A stretch of DNA of 64,000 nt. It comes from an uncultured Erysipelotrichaceae bacterium (GTDB lineage: Bacteria > Bacillota_I > Bacilli_A > RFN20 > CAG-826). A program made the position numbers and the translations under genes. The DNA is taken from assembly GCA_902787955.1 (NCBI GenBank), contig CADAIJ010000006.1:8922-72921 (forward strand). The letters run 5' to 3'. The notes under the pieces are model-generated. The model was not told the DNA's origin. It did no database searches and was given only the letters and a program-made list of their open reading frames with translations. This document shows positions 1 through 23,101 of this stretch, in pieces (position 1 is the stretch's first letter; each line of letters starts with the position of its first letter).

Positions 1-694
1 GACTATAGATGATACTAATAGTTCAACTGAAGATTTAATGAAGCAAAAATATGTTGTTTTCAGTGATGAAAATGGCAATTATTTTGATTATCGTGAAATT
101 AAAGAAATCATCGATAATGGCGATGATACGTATGATGTTCATTTAAAGAATTCAGTAGAACTTCCAGAAGGCGATAGCTCTTGTATTTATATTGGTGAAT
201 TTTTGCCTACTGGAACAACAGATAATATGCGTGGTTCTTCTAAAGGAACCTCATTTAGCGGAGCAATGAACTATCGCGGTGTTGAAAACTGGTATGGTAA
301 CTATGATACCTGGTTAGATGGCATCGGTTTTAAAGATTTAGCTGGCGATAACGGTGGTTCACTTGTTTATTCATTTGATCCTAATCGTTATTCATCTTCA
401 GATTTTTCTTCTTATGAAGAAATTGAAAATGTAAATCTTAACGGTTTTGACGGCACTTATAATGTAGATGATTTTGGTTTGATTTATCCAACTAATAATG
501 GTGGAGAATCAATTGATAATACATATTGCAATATAAGTTCTTCGAATGAAACAGTCGCTTATCGTATTGGCTTTATGGGCGGCTCTTCGTACAATGGTTC
601 GGATGCTGGTGCCTTCTACTTGCACCTCTGGCTTGATGCTTCGCTTGCTGGCGCGTACTGCGGTTTCCGCCTTTCGCAATATCCTTCTAAATAG
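1..694 (+). CDS. DGR target protein with C-terminal CLec-like variable domain (probably 5'-truncated by the window edge)
   Basis: Frame is open from base 2 to the ATG at 38; motifs YRGVENWYGN and GGS.YNG..AG.F...GFRL; VR at the 3' end. Confidence 0.9.
   Translation, partial: TIDDTNSSTEDLMKQKYVVFSDENGNYFDYREIKEIIDNGDDTYDVHLKNSVELPEGDSSCIYIGEFLPTGTTDNMRGSSKGTSFSGAMNYRGVENWYGNYDTWLDGIGFKDLAGDNGGSLVYSFDPNRYSSSDFSSYEEIENVNLNGFDGTYNVDDFGLIYPTNNGGESIDNTYCNISSSNETVAYRIGFMGGSSYNGSDAGAFYLHLWLDASLAGAYCGFRLSQYPSK
578..673 (+). repeat. DGR variable repeat (VR)
   Basis: 96-bp ungapped match to 765-860 with 15 mismatches, all opposite TR adenines. Confidence 0.97.
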
Positions 695-697
695 GTT

Positions 698-725
698 CTA
701 GGGAAATGTTGTTCCCTAGCTTTTT
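698..725 (+). terminator. Hairpin downstream of VR (DGR homing stem-loop and/or intrinsic terminator)
   Basis: CTAGGGAA-atgttg-TTCCCTAG followed by C and TTTTT. Confidence 0.75.
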
Positions 726-764
726 GACGTAAAGAATTGAACAACAAGGGTAATTGACTCTGGA

Positions 765-860
765 AGCGGCAATTCGAACAATGGTTCGGATGCTGGTGCC
801 TTCTACTTGAACCTCAGGAATGATGCTTCGAATGCTAACACGAACTACGGTTTCCGCCTT
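765..860 (+). ncRNA. DGR template repeat (TR)
   Basis: Intergenic, AAC/AAT-rich copy of VR (23 adenines) directly upstream of the RT gene. Confidence 0.95.
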
Positions 861-975
861 AGATTTACCGATTGATTTTGAACCTTATTGGTTGAGTCAA
901 TTATCCTGGGGTTCCCGAAATTAAAATGAAGGGTTTCTTTAGTAAATTATTGAAAGAGAAATATAGGTAAATGAA

Positions 976-2194: not shown

Positions 2195-3772
2195 ATGAAT
2201 AAGAAATTGATGATATTATCGTTAATTCCATTAATTCCATCTTTGATTGGATGCTCAAATCCTTTAATGGTGGAAGCTTCTGGATCTAAATCAATTTATG
2301 AATCGACTGTTCTTGATGATTTAACTTCTGATGAGTCTTTCCATGAAGATATTTATACAGTAGATGATTTTGCTGTTATAAAGTTCATGGAATTTGGCTA
2401 TGCCAAGAACAGCGATACATTGTTTGATTTATTTTTCTATTTTTATCTAACTCCTGATAAATCTTATAATGTTTCAAAATTTAGCCAAATAGTCGCGGCA
2501 AACTCTAATAATGATTATGAGTCTTATGATTTAAGAGTCATTGATTCAAACAATGGGTTTTATAAGACTCAAGTAATAAATTCTAAATCATTATATTTAG
2601 ATAATCTTAATACGCGTGTGTATAACATCTCCAAATATACCGTCTATTCTCGACCTTTAGATGATGAATCAGAAGATAAGATCTCTTTCGATGTTTCTTC
2701 TTCATTTACATTTAGTGGTTTTGCTGAATCCATGAATGGGAATGATTCATCCTCTTTAGAGTGTGCTGAGAATACGTTAGAAACCATCAATCTTGATGTC
2801 AGTGTTGGTAATTGGCTTTCAAAATCTTCTGGAGGCTATCGAAAGAACATTTTCTATGCCTGGTTTAATATCCCTAATCATTTATTAGATTATTATGGTT
2901 ATTTAGATAAAGTTGAGTATCAATATAGTTCTGTTGTATTACCTAATTATTTAGCTTTAACTGAGGATCAAACAATCGCTGTTTTTAATAATGGTGCCAG
3001 AACCAGCAGTAATTCTTCTGTTTCCTGGGCTCCATATACATCTGATTTAAATAATCTTAATAATGATTTTTTTAGATTTTGGATTCCTACTTGGGATTCA
3101 CCTGTTTCTCGTAAAGAAGTTGAACTTAGATCCAAACAGTTTTTAACACCTGCTTTAGATTGGACTTATCACCATATTGAAACGGAGAATATGGAAGAAT
3201 CATATTCGATTACTGAAAACCATCTCAATGGTTTTGAAAGATGGTGGGAAGAAACCTTTCACGGTATTGCTTATAGTGAATTTGATCTTGGGGATTTAAA
3301 TGTTTGGGATATTTTAAGCACAAGTGATTTGGGCTTAAGCAAATCATCGTTTGGATCCAAATATTTTGTTGATGAAGAAGATGTTGATTCTATTAAATCC
3401 TATTTATCCAGATCATCTCAAACGACTTATTTACTAAGATATCATGATGATGATTATTATTCAGAAAATGTTCGCCATGAAGCTTTAGGCGAATACCTTG
3501 GTTATTACTTTAGTTCTCATGCGTGTCTTGATTTTGAAATCATCACTTTCACTTTTAGGAAAGATGGGGTTTCAAAAATTATTCCTGTGATTCATTCTCC
3601 TTTAAATAATTTTCCAAAAGGACTAGCCGCGGATGTTTCAGATCCATGGGGCTGGCTTAAAACAATGTTGATGGCCATTATTCCTTTTGTTCTTGCTATT
3701 TTTGGAGGTGTTCTAGCGTTTTCTCTTATTAAAGCTAGGATATCGCGTCCAAAAGTAAAAATTAAAAAGTAG
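2195..3772 (+). CDS. Exported protein with C-terminal membrane anchor (pIII/adhesin-like topology)
   Basis: AGGAGGT RBS; signal peptide with LIGC lipobox-like motif; C-terminal TM followed by a basic tail. Confidence 0.6.
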   Translation: MNKKLMILSLIPLIPSLIGCSNPLMVEASGSKSIYESTVLDDLTSDESFHEDIYTVDDFAVIKFMEFGYAKNSDTLFDLFFYFYLTPDKSYNVSKFSQIVAANSNNDYESYDLRVIDSNNGFYKTQVINSKSLYLDNLNTRVYNISKYTVYSRPLDDESEDKISFDVSSSFTFSGFAESMNGNDSSSLECAENTLETINLDVSVGNWLSKSSGGYRKNIFYAWFNIPNHLLDYYGYLDKVEYQYSSVVLPNYLALTEDQTIAVFNNGARTSSNSSVSWAPYTSDLNNLNNDFFRFWIPTWDSPVSRKEVELRSKQFLTPALDWTYHHIETENMEESYSITENHLNGFERWWEETFHGIAYSEFDLGDLNVWDILSTSDLGLSKSSFGSKYFVDEEDVDSIKSYLSRSSQTTYLLRYHDDDYYSENVRHEALGEYLGYYFSSHACLDFEIITFTFRKDGVSKIIPVIHSPLNNFPKGLAADVSDPWGWLKTMLMAIIPFVLAIFGGVLAFSLIKARISRPKVKIKK

Positions 3773-3791
3773 GAAAAATAGGAGGTTGGCC

Positions 3792-4172
3792 ATGAATAAC
3801 GAAATTTTTAGAAAACATCGAAGTAGCAAGAATGTACTTCTTCTTGTTATCGTTCTTGTTTTATCTATTTTTACTACATCAATTTCTTTAGTCATTTCTC
3901 ATAAAGAGATTCCTTCTGATATTAATGAAACATTTTTTGTGAATTATAGATTGGTTAAAGGTTATCTCTTTTACGAAAAATCTTTATTTGTTCTTGAGGG
4001 AAAGAAGGAAGATGATAAGTCATATTCCTGGCAAATCGCCACCTTCTTTCCATACACGATTTATAAAGATTATGTTGAATTAAAAAATTCAAATATGGTT
4101 TTAAAGTTCTATAGCAAATATTTATTTGATGGAACTAATTTATTCACTTATGGAGGTGAAATGTCGTTATGA
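3792..4172 (+). CDS. Hypothetical single-TM protein
   Basis: AGGAGG RBS before ATG 3792; N-terminal hydrophobic helix; ATGA overlap with the next gene. Confidence 0.65.
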   Translation: MNNEIFRKHRSSKNVLLLVIVLVLSIFTTSISLVISHKEIPSDINETFFVNYRLVKGYLFYEKSLFVLEGKKEDDKSYSWQIATFFPYTIYKDYVELKNSNMVLKFYSKYLFDGTNLFTYGGEMSL

Positions 4173-6403
4173 AGAATTTTAATTATCGATATATCATTTC
4201 AATAAGTGTTATAACGTTGATGCTTCTTCTCTGTATCTTTGTTTATGGAAATAATGTGATTCGCATCTGGTATTCTTTCCAAGTTTTCGGCGAGGAGATT
4301 TCTTATTATTTCCTTTCAATGTTTAACGAAGATGTTGAAACACCAACATTATATTTTCAGCTTCTGGTTGATGAAGAATTTTTAAGAAGCTATTTTCTTC
4401 CAGAGAATTTCGATGAACTTCTTTTAAATCTTGGAATGCTTTTCCGTTTCTTTGCAGTAAGCGATTTTTGGTTTATCTGGTTAGAATTTTTAGCGAAATT
4501 TTTCTCAATTGGTTTGTTGGTTGTTATGTTTGGATTTATCTTTTTCGTCATTATGAAGATTTCTTATTCATTTATGTTTAAAGAAAACGAAAATGGATTA
4601 GAGCAATCTAAAGGAGTTATTTCCTATAAGAAATTCGAAGATAAAGTTCTTTCGAAAGTTATTGCCTGGATTAAAGAAGAAGTGGATTTTATTTTGCATG
4701 CTCCACTTTCAAAGATGTTTAGGATCATCTTTTATCTTGAATTAGCTTTTATGCTTAATTTGTATCCTTTGGTTATTGTTTTTATCGGTGGAATTTTCTA
4801 TCTTTCTTGCTCTGGAAATCTCCTTTTATTGCTTGAATTAGTATTTAACATAATTGTTTTATTTATCGACATGGTAAGAGTTTTCTCTTTGCCAGGTTTA
4901 ATTCTTCTTTGTTTAATTCTTTTTATTGTTTTACGTGTCAAGGCAGCTTATCGTCATTTGGAATTCTTAGAATCAATTGATAAGAATTTTGTGGATAAGC
5001 TAGGAGTGGTTACTTCCATCTCTGGTGTTGTTGGATCTGGAAAGACCTGGCTTGGCACAGATTTTTATTTGACCGCGATCGATGTTTTTCGCGATAAGGC
5101 GCTTAACATTCTCAATACAATTCAACTTAGATGGCCAACCTACAATTTTTTCTATGTTGAAAACTTTGTGAAGTTAGGCGCTTTTTCGAATCATTATTCA
5201 GTTAAAGACGAGCTTCATAAGCTCTTTAGGACTTATATTAATGAAAAAGGTGAATTAATCTTCGATATCGAAGATAAGCTTCATCTTTTTGATGTTGAAT
5301 GTTGGGCATATTTTGATGGTTTGAGGTATCAAAGCTTATTAGATAACATTATTGAGTATGCCCAGGTTTATTACATTTATAAATCGGAGCTTGGCTCTGC
5401 TAATTATTCCATCAGAACATCTGATTATAAGAAAGATTTAGATCATTTCCCTTTATATGTGGAGAATTATTTTAAAGAGAAATGTCCTGATAATGATTAT
5501 TATTCGAAGATTGTTGATTTCGATTCTTTTAGACTTAAAAAACAAATTGATGAAAATGATAAATTTAAGGATATTGTATGTTTTGGTGTTTTCTCTTTTA
5601 CCGAGCTTGATAAAGAAAGAGGCAATGCTTTCGAAAATCGTGGAATTAAAAAGACTGCGAATGAAGCTAATCAGATGAATGATGGCTTCAATCAATTTTT
5701 GAAGCTTATTCGCCACAAATGTACGATTGGCCATACTTGTTTCTTTAAGATGTTTTATGATGGTCAAAGAAAGAACAGTATCAATGGTGATCTTAATTCC
5801 ATCGCCGAGAATCTTATTTATTTAAGAAGTGCTTCTGGGGAGGATAAATCAACGTTGACATTTGTTTCGTTTTTCCTTCAATTTCCAGATTTCATCGTTT
5901 CTTTTTATAAGAGATTTATTAATCATTTTAGATTCTATAGAGAAGATACTAATTTATTTAGTTATCTTTTCTCGAAGCTTGCTTCGAAATGTTTTAAGCT
6001 TTTGGAATTTATTTCCAAAACATTTTCTTATCGTGTCTTAGAACTTGATGTGAACCATGGGGATATTGATGGCAATACCGTTAAGGATGAGCCAGCTTCT
6101 TATTATCGCCTTTATAAGAAAGTTGGCTATCGCTATAGCACGGATTGCTATCAGTTCTTATTTGAGGATGCTGCGATCTCCTCCGAATTTGGATTAAATG
6201 ACATGCCAAATTATCAGGATATTGTTGCAAGCCGCGAAGAGCTTCTACGCCAAAATTCTTATTTCTTTAACGAGCTCTTTAAGAAGCGTGGTGAGGAACC
6301 TTTATCTCAAGAAGATGAATCTGGTTTAAAGGATGAAGTTTCATCCGATCCAGATTCATCTATAAGATTTGATTCCGATTTCTTCGGAGGGAATTTAAAG
6401 TGA
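4169..6403 (+). CDS. Membrane P-loop ATPase, pI/Zot-like morphogenesis protein
   Basis: Multi-TM N-terminus; Walker A GVVGSGKT; Walker-B-like VFSFTE; Zot-like LIRH...GQ...I..DL..IAE.LI segment. Confidence 0.65.
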   Translation: MKNFNYRYIISISVITLMLLLCIFVYGNNVIRIWYSFQVFGEEISYYFLSMFNEDVETPTLYFQLLVDEEFLRSYFLPENFDELLLNLGMLFRFFAVSDFWFIWLEFLAKFFSIGLLVVMFGFIFFVIMKISYSFMFKENENGLEQSKGVISYKKFEDKVLSKVIAWIKEEVDFILHAPLSKMFRIIFYLELAFMLNLYPLVIVFIGGIFYLSCSGNLLLLLELVFNIIVLFIDMVRVFSLPGLILLCLILFIVLRVKAAYRHLEFLESIDKNFVDKLGVVTSISGVVGSGKTWLGTDFYLTAIDVFRDKALNILNTIQLRWPTYNFFYVENFVKLGAFSNHYSVKDELHKLFRTYINEKGELIFDIEDKLHLFDVECWAYFDGLRYQSLLDNIIEYAQVYYIYKSELGSANYSIRTSDYKKDLDHFPLYVENYFKEKCPDNDYYSKIVDFDSFRLKKQIDENDKFKDIVCFGVFSFTELDKERGNAFENRGIKKTANEANQMNDGFNQFLKLIRHKCTIGHTCFFKMFYDGQRKNSINGDLNSIAENLIYLRSASGEDKSTLTFVSFFLQFPDFIVSFYKRFINHFRFYREDTNLFSYLFSKLASKCFKLLEFISKTFSYRVLELDVNHGDIDGNTVKDEPASYYRLYKKVGYRYSTDCYQFLFEDAAISSEFGLNDMPNYQDIVASREELLRQNSYFFNELFKKRGEEPLSQEDESGLKDEVSSDPDSSIRFDSDFFGGNLK

Positions 6404-6511: not shown

Positions 6512-7714
6512 ATGAAAGCAAAAGATAACGTAAACATTCTTATTGACTATTTTAAAGTTGGTTTTGATTTCACTGTTTCTTTTAAGGAAGGCTTTTATGT
6601 TGAATTTTTAAAACTCATCTCTAAAGACGTAAAAGATGCTGAAAGAATTCCTTATGCCGCGTTTGGTTATAACGAAGGATACAACGTTGGTGAAAACATT
6701 TTCTTTTTCTCTGGTGGCGATTTTACTCGCAATAAAGCAGGTGAAGAAACAAGTCTTTTCGAACTTAAGGGTTCAGCTTGTCGAGAATTCGAAGCATATG
6801 GTGGTTCCTGGCTTAGTTTATTTGAACTTGTATTTCAATATGGCGGTCATTGCACCAGAATTGATATCGCTATTGATGATCAATCGGGATTGATTACAAT
6901 CGACGAACTTAAAGATAAAGTGTTGAAGCATGAATACACCACTAAGACCAGGAATATGATTTTAGATGAAAATCTTCCAGAAGAAGTTATGAACCAAGAG
7001 TTCGATGAACCTCAAATTAGAACTTCAAATAATAAGGGCTTTACTGCAACTTTTGGGGGAAGATCTAATTCGCAACTTTGTATTTATAATAAAAAAGCGG
7101 AAAGAGAAGCTCACGGTTATATCGTAACTTACTCTTCTTGGATAAGGTTTGAATGTCGTTATTATCATTCAACCGCTCAAAGTGCTTTTTTGAAACTCTT
7201 TAAAGTTTTAAAAGAGGATTTTATCAATGGTGCGATTGATCTTTATCCGAAAGCTTGTTTATCATTCTTAGCTCATCTAATTGAATTTAAGGAATCGATT
7301 AAAAATTATGGTAGCTCTAATCGCTATTTAGAAACGAATTGGTCTAAATGGGATTTATTCTGCAAGAAGATTGAGAAATGTGTTCCTCATTGTTCTCCTA
7401 AATTAGAACAAACTCTTTTTGACAATTATTCGTGGTTTTATAGAACAAATAAGAGAATTTTAAATCGTTTGTTTGGATCTGATCCATCTAGATTCAAATC
7501 TTTTATTTCTTACTGCATGAAAGAAGGCTTTCGTGAAGGAAAAGTTACTTTAAATGATATTCAAGTCATTAATAACTTTAGAAAAAAAGAAGGATTTGAG
7601 CCAATATCTCTCAATCAATTAGAAAATTATTTAGCTTCTGAAACAGTTCTAGAAGAAGATTCATCTTACTTTGAACGTTTTAAAGATAAATACACATATA
7701 AGGAGGAATATTAA
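6512..7714 (+). CDS. Rep_trans-family rolling-circle replication initiator
   Basis: Motifs FELKGSACR, TRIDIAIDD, FGGRS..LCIYNKKAE (catalytic Tyr), WIRFECR. Confidence 0.88.
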   Translation: MKAKDNVNILIDYFKVGFDFTVSFKEGFYVEFLKLISKDVKDAERIPYAAFGYNEGYNVGENIFFFSGGDFTRNKAGEETSLFELKGSACREFEAYGGSWLSLFELVFQYGGHCTRIDIAIDDQSGLITIDELKDKVLKHEYTTKTRNMILDENLPEEVMNQEFDEPQIRTSNNKGFTATFGGRSNSQLCIYNKKAEREAHGYIVTYSSWIRFECRYYHSTAQSAFLKLFKVLKEDFINGAIDLYPKACLSFLAHLIEFKESIKNYGSSNRYLETNWSKWDLFCKKIEKCVPHCSPKLEQTLFDNYSWFYRTNKRILNRLFGSDPSRFKSFISYCMKEGFREGKVTLNDIQVINNFRKKEGFEPISLNQLENYLASETVLEEDSSYFERFKDKYTYKEEY

Positions 7715-22818: not shown

Positions 22819-22892
22819 TGGAGCAGGCGACGAGAATCGAACTCGCGTAGTCTGCTTGGAAGGCAGATGTACTACCATTGTACTACGCCTGC
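22819..22892 (-). tRNA. tRNA-Gly(TCC), intact, inside the island
   Basis: GCAGGCG...TCTGC-CTTCCAA-GCAGA...GTTCGATT...CGCCTGC-TCCA, 74 nt. Confidence 0.95.
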
Positions 22893-22947
22893 ATATAAGG
22901 ATAAACCTTATATACCTTATGGTTTGTGCTTAGCAGTTTAGTTTTCT

Positions 22948-23021
22948 TTAGCGGTTGACCGGGAATCGGACCCGTATAATTAGCTTGGAAGGCTAATGTT
23001 CTACCACTGAACTACATCTGC
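22948..23021 (-). pseudogene. Disrupted host tRNA-Gly(TCC): intact 5' part fused to a degenerate 3' end (att site)
   Basis: D and anticodon arms are perfect; T-loop reads TCCGATT, acceptor stem mismatched, no CCA. Confidence 0.85.
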
Positions 23022-23024
23022 AAG

Positions 23025-23101
23025 TGGCGGACCGTAGGGGATTCGAACCCCTGATCTCCTCCGTGACAGGGAGGCATGCAAGGCCACTACACCAACGGTC
23101 C
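23025..23101 (-). tRNA. tRNA-Asp(GTC)
   Basis: GGACCGT...CCTCC-CTGTCAC-GGAGG...GTTCGAATC...ACGGTCC-GCCA. Confidence 0.96.

Follow-up and report, generated by a model that had tools for sequence, protein, structure and literature searches.

The DNA analysed here (hereafter the window) is a stretch of 64,000 nucleotides (nt) from an uncultured Erysipelotrichaceae bacterium (contig CADAIJ010000006.1 of assembly GCA_902787955.1, positions 8,922 to 72,921 of the forward strand). At its start lie the parts of a diversity-generating retroelement (DGR): the 3' part of a target gene with a variable region (VR) near its end, a template region (TR), a spacer, and the gene for a reverse transcriptase (RT); no accessory gene accompanies them. 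We consider it highly likely that the locus is a DGR of this minimal layout, carried on a 16.5-kb element integrated at a tRNA-Ser gene (Table 1).

The variable region, its template and the target protein

An earlier note on this DNA had described a 96-nt ungapped repeat pair in which all 15 mismatches stand at TR adenines, and realignment bears this out. VR (578-673) and TR (765-860) align at an offset of 187 over 96 nt without a gap; the 15 mismatches (A>T 6, A>G 5, A>C 4) fall without exception on TR adenines (15/15), and not one of the 73 non-A positions of the TR differs in the VR (0/73). Given a TR composed of 23 A, 26 T, 24 C and 23 G, with 15 of the 23 adenines changed in the VR, the hypergeometric chance that 15 of 15 mismatches land on 23 adenines among 96 sites is 3.7e-12. 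The same pair was recovered by an independent repeat search as 566-673/753-860, and BLAST gives 95 nt (579-673), the edge position 578 being itself mismatched. The 12 nt immediately 5' of the VR (566-577) are still TR-like; of their 5 mismatches, 3 stand at TR bases other than A, for which reason we place the 5' edge of the homing tract near 578.

Read in the frame of the open reading frame (ORF) at 2..694, the 23 TR adenines occupy the first (11) or second (12) position of 15 codons, and an enumeration of all A-to-N changes found none by which a stop codon could be reached in the VR; the note's statements on both points hold, as does its figure of 4^23 for the nucleotide space, equal to 7e13 variants. 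Eight of the 15 A-bearing codons of the TR are AAY, each with 15 possible residues, and a hand count from the per-codon residue sets (15^8 x 4^6 x 3) puts the peptide space at ~3.1e13. In the 1.5-Mb genome no site besides VR and TR matches the non-A positions of the TR, and the RT is present in a single copy; the system therefore consists of one template and one target. Promoter-like sites number 5 in the region, fewer than the 9.2 found in shuffles, so that the promoter-like site at 754-782 carries no weight.

The VR spans codons 431-462 of the 468 of the target, that is 32 codons, and is followed by a tail of 7 codons. At the other end of the protein, residues 3-21 form a hydrophobic segment, either an anchor or a signal. 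No Pfam or NCBIfam family matched the target; among the PHROG families it matches phrog_5302, annotated as "tail protein", over residues 94-467 (E 5.8e-31). An AlphaFold (AF2) model built from 19 sequences reached a mean predicted local distance difference test (pLDDT) of 72.6, and a Foldseek search of the PDB with this model returned as its top matches three chains of 5vf4 (E 2.9e-7 to 1.1e-6, probability 1.00), the Thermus aquaticus DGR variable protein TaqVP, with the formylglycine-generating enzyme (FGE) and Mtd lower in the list. Likewise, 5vf4 is the sole PDB match of the target family profile (alignment A2; E 0.0019). With moderate confidence, the model thus places the VR where a DGR would have it, at the end of the target ORF within a predicted C-type-lectin-like variable-protein fold; unlike TaqVP, the target has an extra beta-rich middle part and the N-terminal anchor.

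Table 1. Positions of the retroelement components and of other features of the carrier element (window coordinates unless a contig is named)
Feature	Position	Strand	Basis and remarks
DGR target gene, 3' part	2..694	+	whole gene G000:C6:8209-9615, 468 amino acids (aa); phrog_5302; model closest to TaqVP
Variable region (VR)	578..673	+	adenine-specific repeat alignment with TR; 96 nt
Hairpin 3' of VR	698..719	+	8-bp stem, 6-nt loop, then CTTTTT; 24 nt downstream of VR
Template region (TR)	765..860	+	non-coding; 59-70 nt past target stop codon; weak homology from 753
TR-RT spacer hairpin	934..961	+	stem 934-939 with 956-961; 16-nt loop 940-955 holds TAGTA
DGR reverse transcriptase, 343 aa	976..2007	+	RVT_1 E 7.7e-15; phrog_1423 E 2.2e-78; best solved relative 8ub7
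525-aa lipoprotein, C-terminal anchor	2195-3772	+	no Pfam, NCBIfam or PHROG family; synteny in relatives
128-aa membrane protein	3786-4172	+	no Pfam, NCBIfam or PHROG family; synteny in relatives
744-aa protein, ~7 hydrophobic N-terminal segments and P-loop ATPase, Zot-like fold	4169-6403	+	AF2 model; synteny
Rolling-circle type replication initiator or relaxase (Rep_trans)	6512..7714	+	PF02486 E 1.8e-21; phrog_453; MobT 55 bits
Tyrosine integrase of element	9554..10612	+	PF00589 E 2.7e-23; phrog_1 E 1e-44
tRNA-Ser(GCT)	10709..10799	-	3' 17 nt (10709-10725) = attR core
attL copy	G000:C6:3096-3112		upstream of window; 17-nt exact direct repeat inside 57-nt 86% match

Reverse transcriptase, spacer RNA and related loci

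The RT frame is intact and starts after a spacer of 115 nt downstream of the TR. The best solved relative of the protein, 8ub7 (E 2.1e-29), which we take to be the DGR RT of Bordetella phage BPP-1, can be aligned over residues 66-311; within this stretch IGFYSSQ falls on IGSLTSQ, YCDD on YMDD and an arginine on the R74 position, and the equivalent of I181 is conserved. Both motifs conform to the patterns of DGR enzymes, [I/V/L]GxxxSQ and YxDD; PMC7826257 describes the former as the DGR signature and names two residues that promote adenine mutagenesis, R74 and I181, the latter opening that motif. The YCDD variant is ordinary, being found in 6 of 53 distinct related RT motifs. The reading of the locus as a DGR, already proposed in the note, is upheld by the adenine-specific VR/TR pair, the adjoining intact RT with its signature motif, and the C-terminal position of the VR in the TaqVP-like model.

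Two hairpins flank the template. The first, 3' of the VR, has counterparts of the same G-run/C-run type at a similar location after the VR in all eight relatives that were folded (8/8); we regard it as a candidate target-recognition hairpin of the DGR, as a candidate terminator of the target gene, or as both, a target-side hairpin being known from the BPP-1 DGR (PMC3240598). The second lies in the spacer between TR and RT. The TAGTA in its loop is invariant across 17 loci (alignment A7), and the six pairs of its stem covary: 87.1% of cells are paired, compared with 62.2% in shuffles (0 of 500 reach the observed value) and 38-48% with a slid partner; in 22 cells both sides have changed among the 17 loci. 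Of 63 distinct RT loci, 15 have TAGTAG at a distance of 31-56 nt before the predicted start of the RT, and the hairpin is common to a clade of DGRs (RT 31-47% identical where an identity was returned), with occurrences in genomes, IMG/VR and metagenome contigs. Rfam has no match over 500-1100, a range that includes the spacer hairpin. By analogy, the hairpin is probably part of the DGR RNA needed by the RT: in the Bordetella element, RNA downstream of the TR, together with Avd, primes and positions cDNA synthesis, according to bioRxiv 10.1101/2023.10.23.563531. A pairing of the TAGTA loop with CTAC/ACTA at the 3' end of the TR was considered and rejected, as it is seen here and in only one of six relatives.

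Among the genomes of the host family no RT relative exceeds 47% aa identity; RT matches occur in 15 of 401 of these genomes and in none of the 36 from the same genus. The best match in IMG/VR is 48% identical over part of the protein (residues 135-318) and 38% over nearly the full length, and the best in metagenome contigs 42%; none of these three collections yielded a close relative of the RT at the DNA level. An adenine-specific VR-TR pair adjoins the RT in 16 of 18 related host-family loci (RT 27-47% identical), a count made up of 15 of the loci L004-L021 together with L004 once it was read on the whole circular contig.

Compared with the DGR of BPP-1 (mtd-avd-TR-brt), the locus is alike in the adenine-specific transfer from TR to VR, in the location of the VR, at the C-terminus of a receptor-binding protein, in the RT motif and the equivalents of R74 and I181, in the hairpin after the VR, and in the structured RNA between TR and RT; it is unlike it in having no Avd, a carrier that is not a tailed phage, and a target with an N-terminal membrane anchor. 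The layout, TR-RT with an adjacent target, does not differ from that of the accessory-free "Architecture A" of Wu et al. (2018; PMC5758913).

The carrier element

The element occupies 16,534 bp between its attachment (att) repeats, and its left end consists of the displaced tRNA end followed by the old downstream hairpin of that tRNA. Its gene order opens with two helix-turn-helix (HTH) regulators on the opposite strand, followed by short ORFs, some of them membrane-anchored and some very basic; the middle comprises a 248-aa anchored protein, a 368-aa lipoprotein, the DGR, the 525-aa lipoprotein, the 128-aa membrane protein and the 744-aa ATPase, and the end a Rep_trans protein, two unknown proteins and the tyrosine integrase. 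For the 525-aa lipoprotein an Atlas search gave nothing usable, and hhalign to ORF1 of Acholeplasma virus L2 returned a probability of 3.9%.

A syntenic relative with the same gene set is found in another genus (L111, on G230:C14), on a contig of 16,108 nt with a terminal overlap of 55 nt; its VR and TR sit either side of the contig ends, and because they span these overlapping ends we take the L111 element to be a circle. In three genomes of the same genus (L131, L132 and L133) the backbone is shared all the way from the HTH pair through the integrase, but a DGR is absent. The 744-aa ATPase was found in 49 of 401 sampled family genomes as against 15 for the RT, and the two share a contig in four (G000, G012, G230 and G355); these counts, together with the DGR-free siblings, mean that the DGR is cargo carried by a minority of these elements.

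Some side observations concern the gene content of these elements and of the window. In L131-L133 the middle "membrane protein" module is exchanged as a block. A very basic protein of ~105 aa (MSRSEFR.NKKRKHY...), encoded at G000:C6:7450-7773 and at L133:17252-17566, is kept both with and without the DGR and may be DNA-condensing. In L107 (G012:C106) a second, shorter member of the target family (366-aa ORF) takes the place that the 368-aa lipoprotein has here, and homologous target proteins also occur on other contigs of 10.9-16.3 kb. Elsewhere in the window, three tRNA genes (Gly, Gly, Asp) lie on the minus strand at 22819-23101; the remainder looks like ordinary chromosome.

The nature of the carrier turns largely on the ATPase. 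Its family, whose members are of uniform length (~700-760 aa in P0012-P0161), counts 599 representative clusters at E <= 0.001, and Pfam, NCBIfam and PHROG have no model for it; sub-threshold P-loop traces appear in 4 of 60 relatives. The AF2 model of the ATPase has a pLDDT of 90.1, and its top match among 48,161 PDB chains is 2r2a, the N-terminal domain of Neisseria Zot (Z 11.9, 165 of 191 residues, root-mean-square deviation 3.4), followed by RecA/Rad51 (Z 9.8), STIV2 B204 (9.5), and the conjugation ATPases TcpA (9.5-9.6), VirB4 (9.2) and TrwB (8.8-8.9). In the viral structures of BFVD the top named match is ORF3 of Acholeplasma phage L2 (E 4.9e-5, probability 1.00, TM by target 0.45), after which come Zot proteins of Inoviridae (probability 0.99-1.00). 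Leads from the Atlas are weak (Zot 0.82; FtsK by structure, with a TM below 0.45), and as a single protein the ATPase has no match in IMG/VR. The only record of a phage collection with an ATPase homologue (27.5% over 94%) is L112 (MT835493.1, 57 kb, "Bacteriophage sp.", unannotated); alongside an integrase, this record also encodes a homologue of the 525-aa protein, and beyond these come large genes without annotation.

The likeness to L2 extends to genome organization and host. Plasmaviridae are profiled as budding viruses of wall-less bacteria with a 12-kb genome, genes on one strand, 32% G+C and integration into tRNA genes (PMC12662186); replication of L2 starts at two origins with DnaA boxes and uses the replisome of its host (PMC12662186). 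The present element shares with L2 its small size, nearly all genes on one strand, ~32% G+C, a tyrosine integrase, a tRNA site and a probably wall-less host, and the succession of a large membrane protein, a small membrane protein and a membrane ATPase recalls the order ORF1-ORF2-ORF3; unlike L2 (12 kb) it measures 16.5 kb, Rep_trans is found here only, and no DGR is annotated in L2. In the host genome (1.5 Mb, 33% G+C, 94% complete), the penicillin-binding protein (PBP) transpeptidase, FtsW/RodA and MurG-N models have no match, and a single weak match concerns a Mur ligase; the host is therefore probably without peptidoglycan, as plasmavirus hosts are.

The second likeness is to inoviruses, for which Roux et al. 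(2019; PMC6813254) list a pI-like ATPase with Zot as the nearest Pfam family and 1-2 transmembrane domains, a Rep, a size of 5-20 kb and a tRNA att. Here, too, Zot is the nearest fold, and a rolling-circle initiator, a size within 5-20 kb, a tRNA att and short membrane ORFs are present; the ATPase, however, has 744 aa with ~7 hydrophobic segments and no Pfam Zot match, unlike that of inoviruses. Regarding precedents, the terms "diversity-generating", "retroelement" and "reverse transcriptase" are absent from the main text of the inovirus survey (PMC6813254), and in PMC8144416 inoviruses come up only in the references and, as a detection pipeline, in the methods. The DGR term has no occurrence in the papers retrieved for Mollicutes-type names, and none of the main texts searched was found to report a non-tailed virus of this type with a DGR, supplementary tables lying outside that search.

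We lean, somewhat past an even chance, towards the carrier being a non-tailed, membrane-associated provirus, plasmavirus- or inovirus-like, of a wall-less host. Several observations weigh against this assignment. No virion, coat or capsid protein, and no portal, terminase or tail gene, was recognised in the element by Pfam, PHROG or NCBIfam; the Pfam Zot model matches neither the ATPase nor any of the 60 family members scanned; hhalign of the ATPase with L2 ORF3 aligned the P-loop only (probability 0.8%); and the similarity of the element's proteins to phage L2 at the sequence level is confined to the integrase (E 1.5e-8). The conjugation ATPases named above, at Z 8.8-9.6, and a distant likeness of the Rep_trans protein to the NCBIfam family MobT (E 5.2e-15, 55.1 bits) count on the same side.

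It is from these two matches, and from the want of any recognised virion protein, that the foremost alternative draws. The DGR would be real, and the carrier an integrative mobilizable or conjugative element, with Rep_trans as a MobT-type relaxase, the ATPase as a coupling or translocation protein, and the target as a surface adhesin serving mating contact or host colonisation; membrane-anchored targets are indeed described as typical of cellular DGRs in PMC8144416. We judge this possible and on balance unlikely. The MobT match, at 55 bits, stands far below the cut-off of 600, so that the combination defining a MobT-type element, a relaxase above the cut-off with a coupling protein, is not what is found here, and Pfam detected no VirB4-, VirB6- or hydrolase-type families. 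Zot exceeds every other fold among the 48,161 chains by 2.1 Z units, and the viral library yields L2 ORF3 and Inoviridae Zot. Moreover, the relative assembles as a free 16-kb circle, and the element resembles small temperate phages in its compactness and in its short genes, which lie on one strand. A MobT match below its cut-off and a TcpA match below Zot thus lower the claim of a mobilizable element, although a similar way of working would still be compatible with them.

Returning to the provirus, we tentatively suggest, at rather less than even probability, a more specific version: that the carrier represents an undescribed family of non-tailed, membrane-associated viruses of wall-less Bacillota, distinguished by a Zot/L2-ORF3-like membrane ATPase, a rolling-circle Rep and tRNA integration, of which a subset captured a DGR that diversifies its membrane-anchored attachment protein. 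That the diversified protein is the attachment protein of a provirus, if the carrier is indeed a virus, is the least secure of these claims.

Diversification in the lineage and its meaning

Assembled contigs from four studies (X2, X4, X7 and X8) were compared with the locus; among the differing positions listed, none falls inside 578-673. Over the same 2.1 kb related strains diverge by ~5%, with 105 other letters in 2100 in X8 and 98 in 1896 in X7; differences between the TR of relatives and the present one include, among those listed, 771 (A>G), 785 (T>C) and 800 (C>A). The cluster of the target protein at 90% identity has 4 members. One relative from another assembly, P0001, is 92% identical and differs from the target in 9 of the 32 VR codons as against 30 of the 436 residues outside; the nine VR differences are confined to the 15 A-bearing codons (p 1.8e-4), and A-to-N changes in the TR suffice to produce each of them. 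Since the VR of P0001 differs at A-templated codons only, we regard the lineage as one in which the retroelement has been active, and there is good evidence, drawn from these sequence comparisons, that the element has diversified its target since the strains split. The earlier note had further claimed recent activity; this receives indirect support from the lack of drift at non-A positions (0/73) against a strain divergence of ~5%, and from the differences in the VR of P0001. Homing may still take place at present. A further observation was made in X2, where no contig covers ~492-741 and two alternative contigs lie on each side; this would fit a hypervariable VR or mixed strains, and was not counted.

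A number of points weigh against an active DGR of the kind proposed. The target model is a moderate one, with pLDDT values of 39-85 in the VR-proximal blocks, and its resemblance to TaqVP is limited (TM 0.38-0.47, identity 13-15%). In P0011, 16 of the 32 VR residues differ, and 5 of the 32 cannot be derived from the present TR by A-to-N changes; P0010 shifts within the VR into the +1 frame, in which it then runs on, and this may be a real homing indel or an assembly artefact of mixed VRs. The sets compared are contigs, which are blind to minor VR variants. Avd is needed by the best-studied DGR, and here a search of the 94%-complete genome with PF05635 gave nothing at E <= 1; the small ORFs of the element match no Pfam family either. 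This absence is not disqualifying, because in a curated survey 75 of 372 DGRs (29%) are without an accessory gene (PMC5758913).

The same absence of an Avd homologue would suit a recent fossil, in which diversification belongs to the past, homing has ceased, for instance through the loss of a partner such as Avd, and the VR is fixed. An identical target protein recovered from 3 contigs points the same way, though these may be one assembly filed repeatedly. We hold this to be improbable, given that no non-A position has drifted between VR and TR, that the RT has an uninterrupted frame and retains its catalytic motifs, that the spacer hairpin is intact, that accessory-free DGRs make up the share of the curated set cited above, and that the closest relative, P0001, has a differently diversified VR. 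An ordinary duplication or gene-conversion tract with an adenine pattern arisen by chance is refuted, with next to no probability left to it, by the value of 3.7e-12, the adjoining DGR-type RT and the same arrangement in 16 of 18 related loci.

For an active DGR, the observed anatomy, intact RT, hairpins and sister-strain VR would combine with steps known by analogy with the Bordetella phage element. TR and spacer would be transcribed, and the RT, aided by the spacer hairpin, would copy the TR RNA into cDNA with random bases opposite template adenines, the details of RNA priming being the more conjectural part. The cDNA would then replace the VR up to ~578; the 3' end common to VR and TR, GGTTTCCGCCTT, would direct it there, perhaps with help from the downstream hairpin. 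In this way up to 15 codons might be re-drawn (~3e13 peptides), without stops, at what the modelled fold suggests is the ligand-binding face, at the C-terminus, of a C-type-lectin-like protein anchored in a membrane.

The class of DGRs already has tens of thousands of catalogued members, and the mechanism itself is therefore not news: the DGR is ordinary in this respect, and it is the carrier that is unusual and partly understood. As a minimal DGR that lacks Avd and has a short structured spacer, the locus is nevertheless a handy system for studying cDNA priming in the absence of that protein, and a compact 16.5-kb element whose ends are exact, which has a relative in circular form and whose siblings in the genus lack the DGR, offers a natural with/without test of the benefit of a DGR. 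The role of the diversified protein depends on the carrier: it would serve for attachment on an enveloped or extruded virus, and as an adhesin at the cell surface on a mobilizable element. Should the carrier be a plasmavirus- or inovirus-like virus of a wall-less gut bacterium, receptor switching by DGRs would reach beyond tailed phages, and ~600 clusters of membrane ATPases that lack annotation would gain a first clue to their function; and if it belongs to an undescribed virus family, the locus would represent a DGR-driven tropism switch in a tail-less virus.

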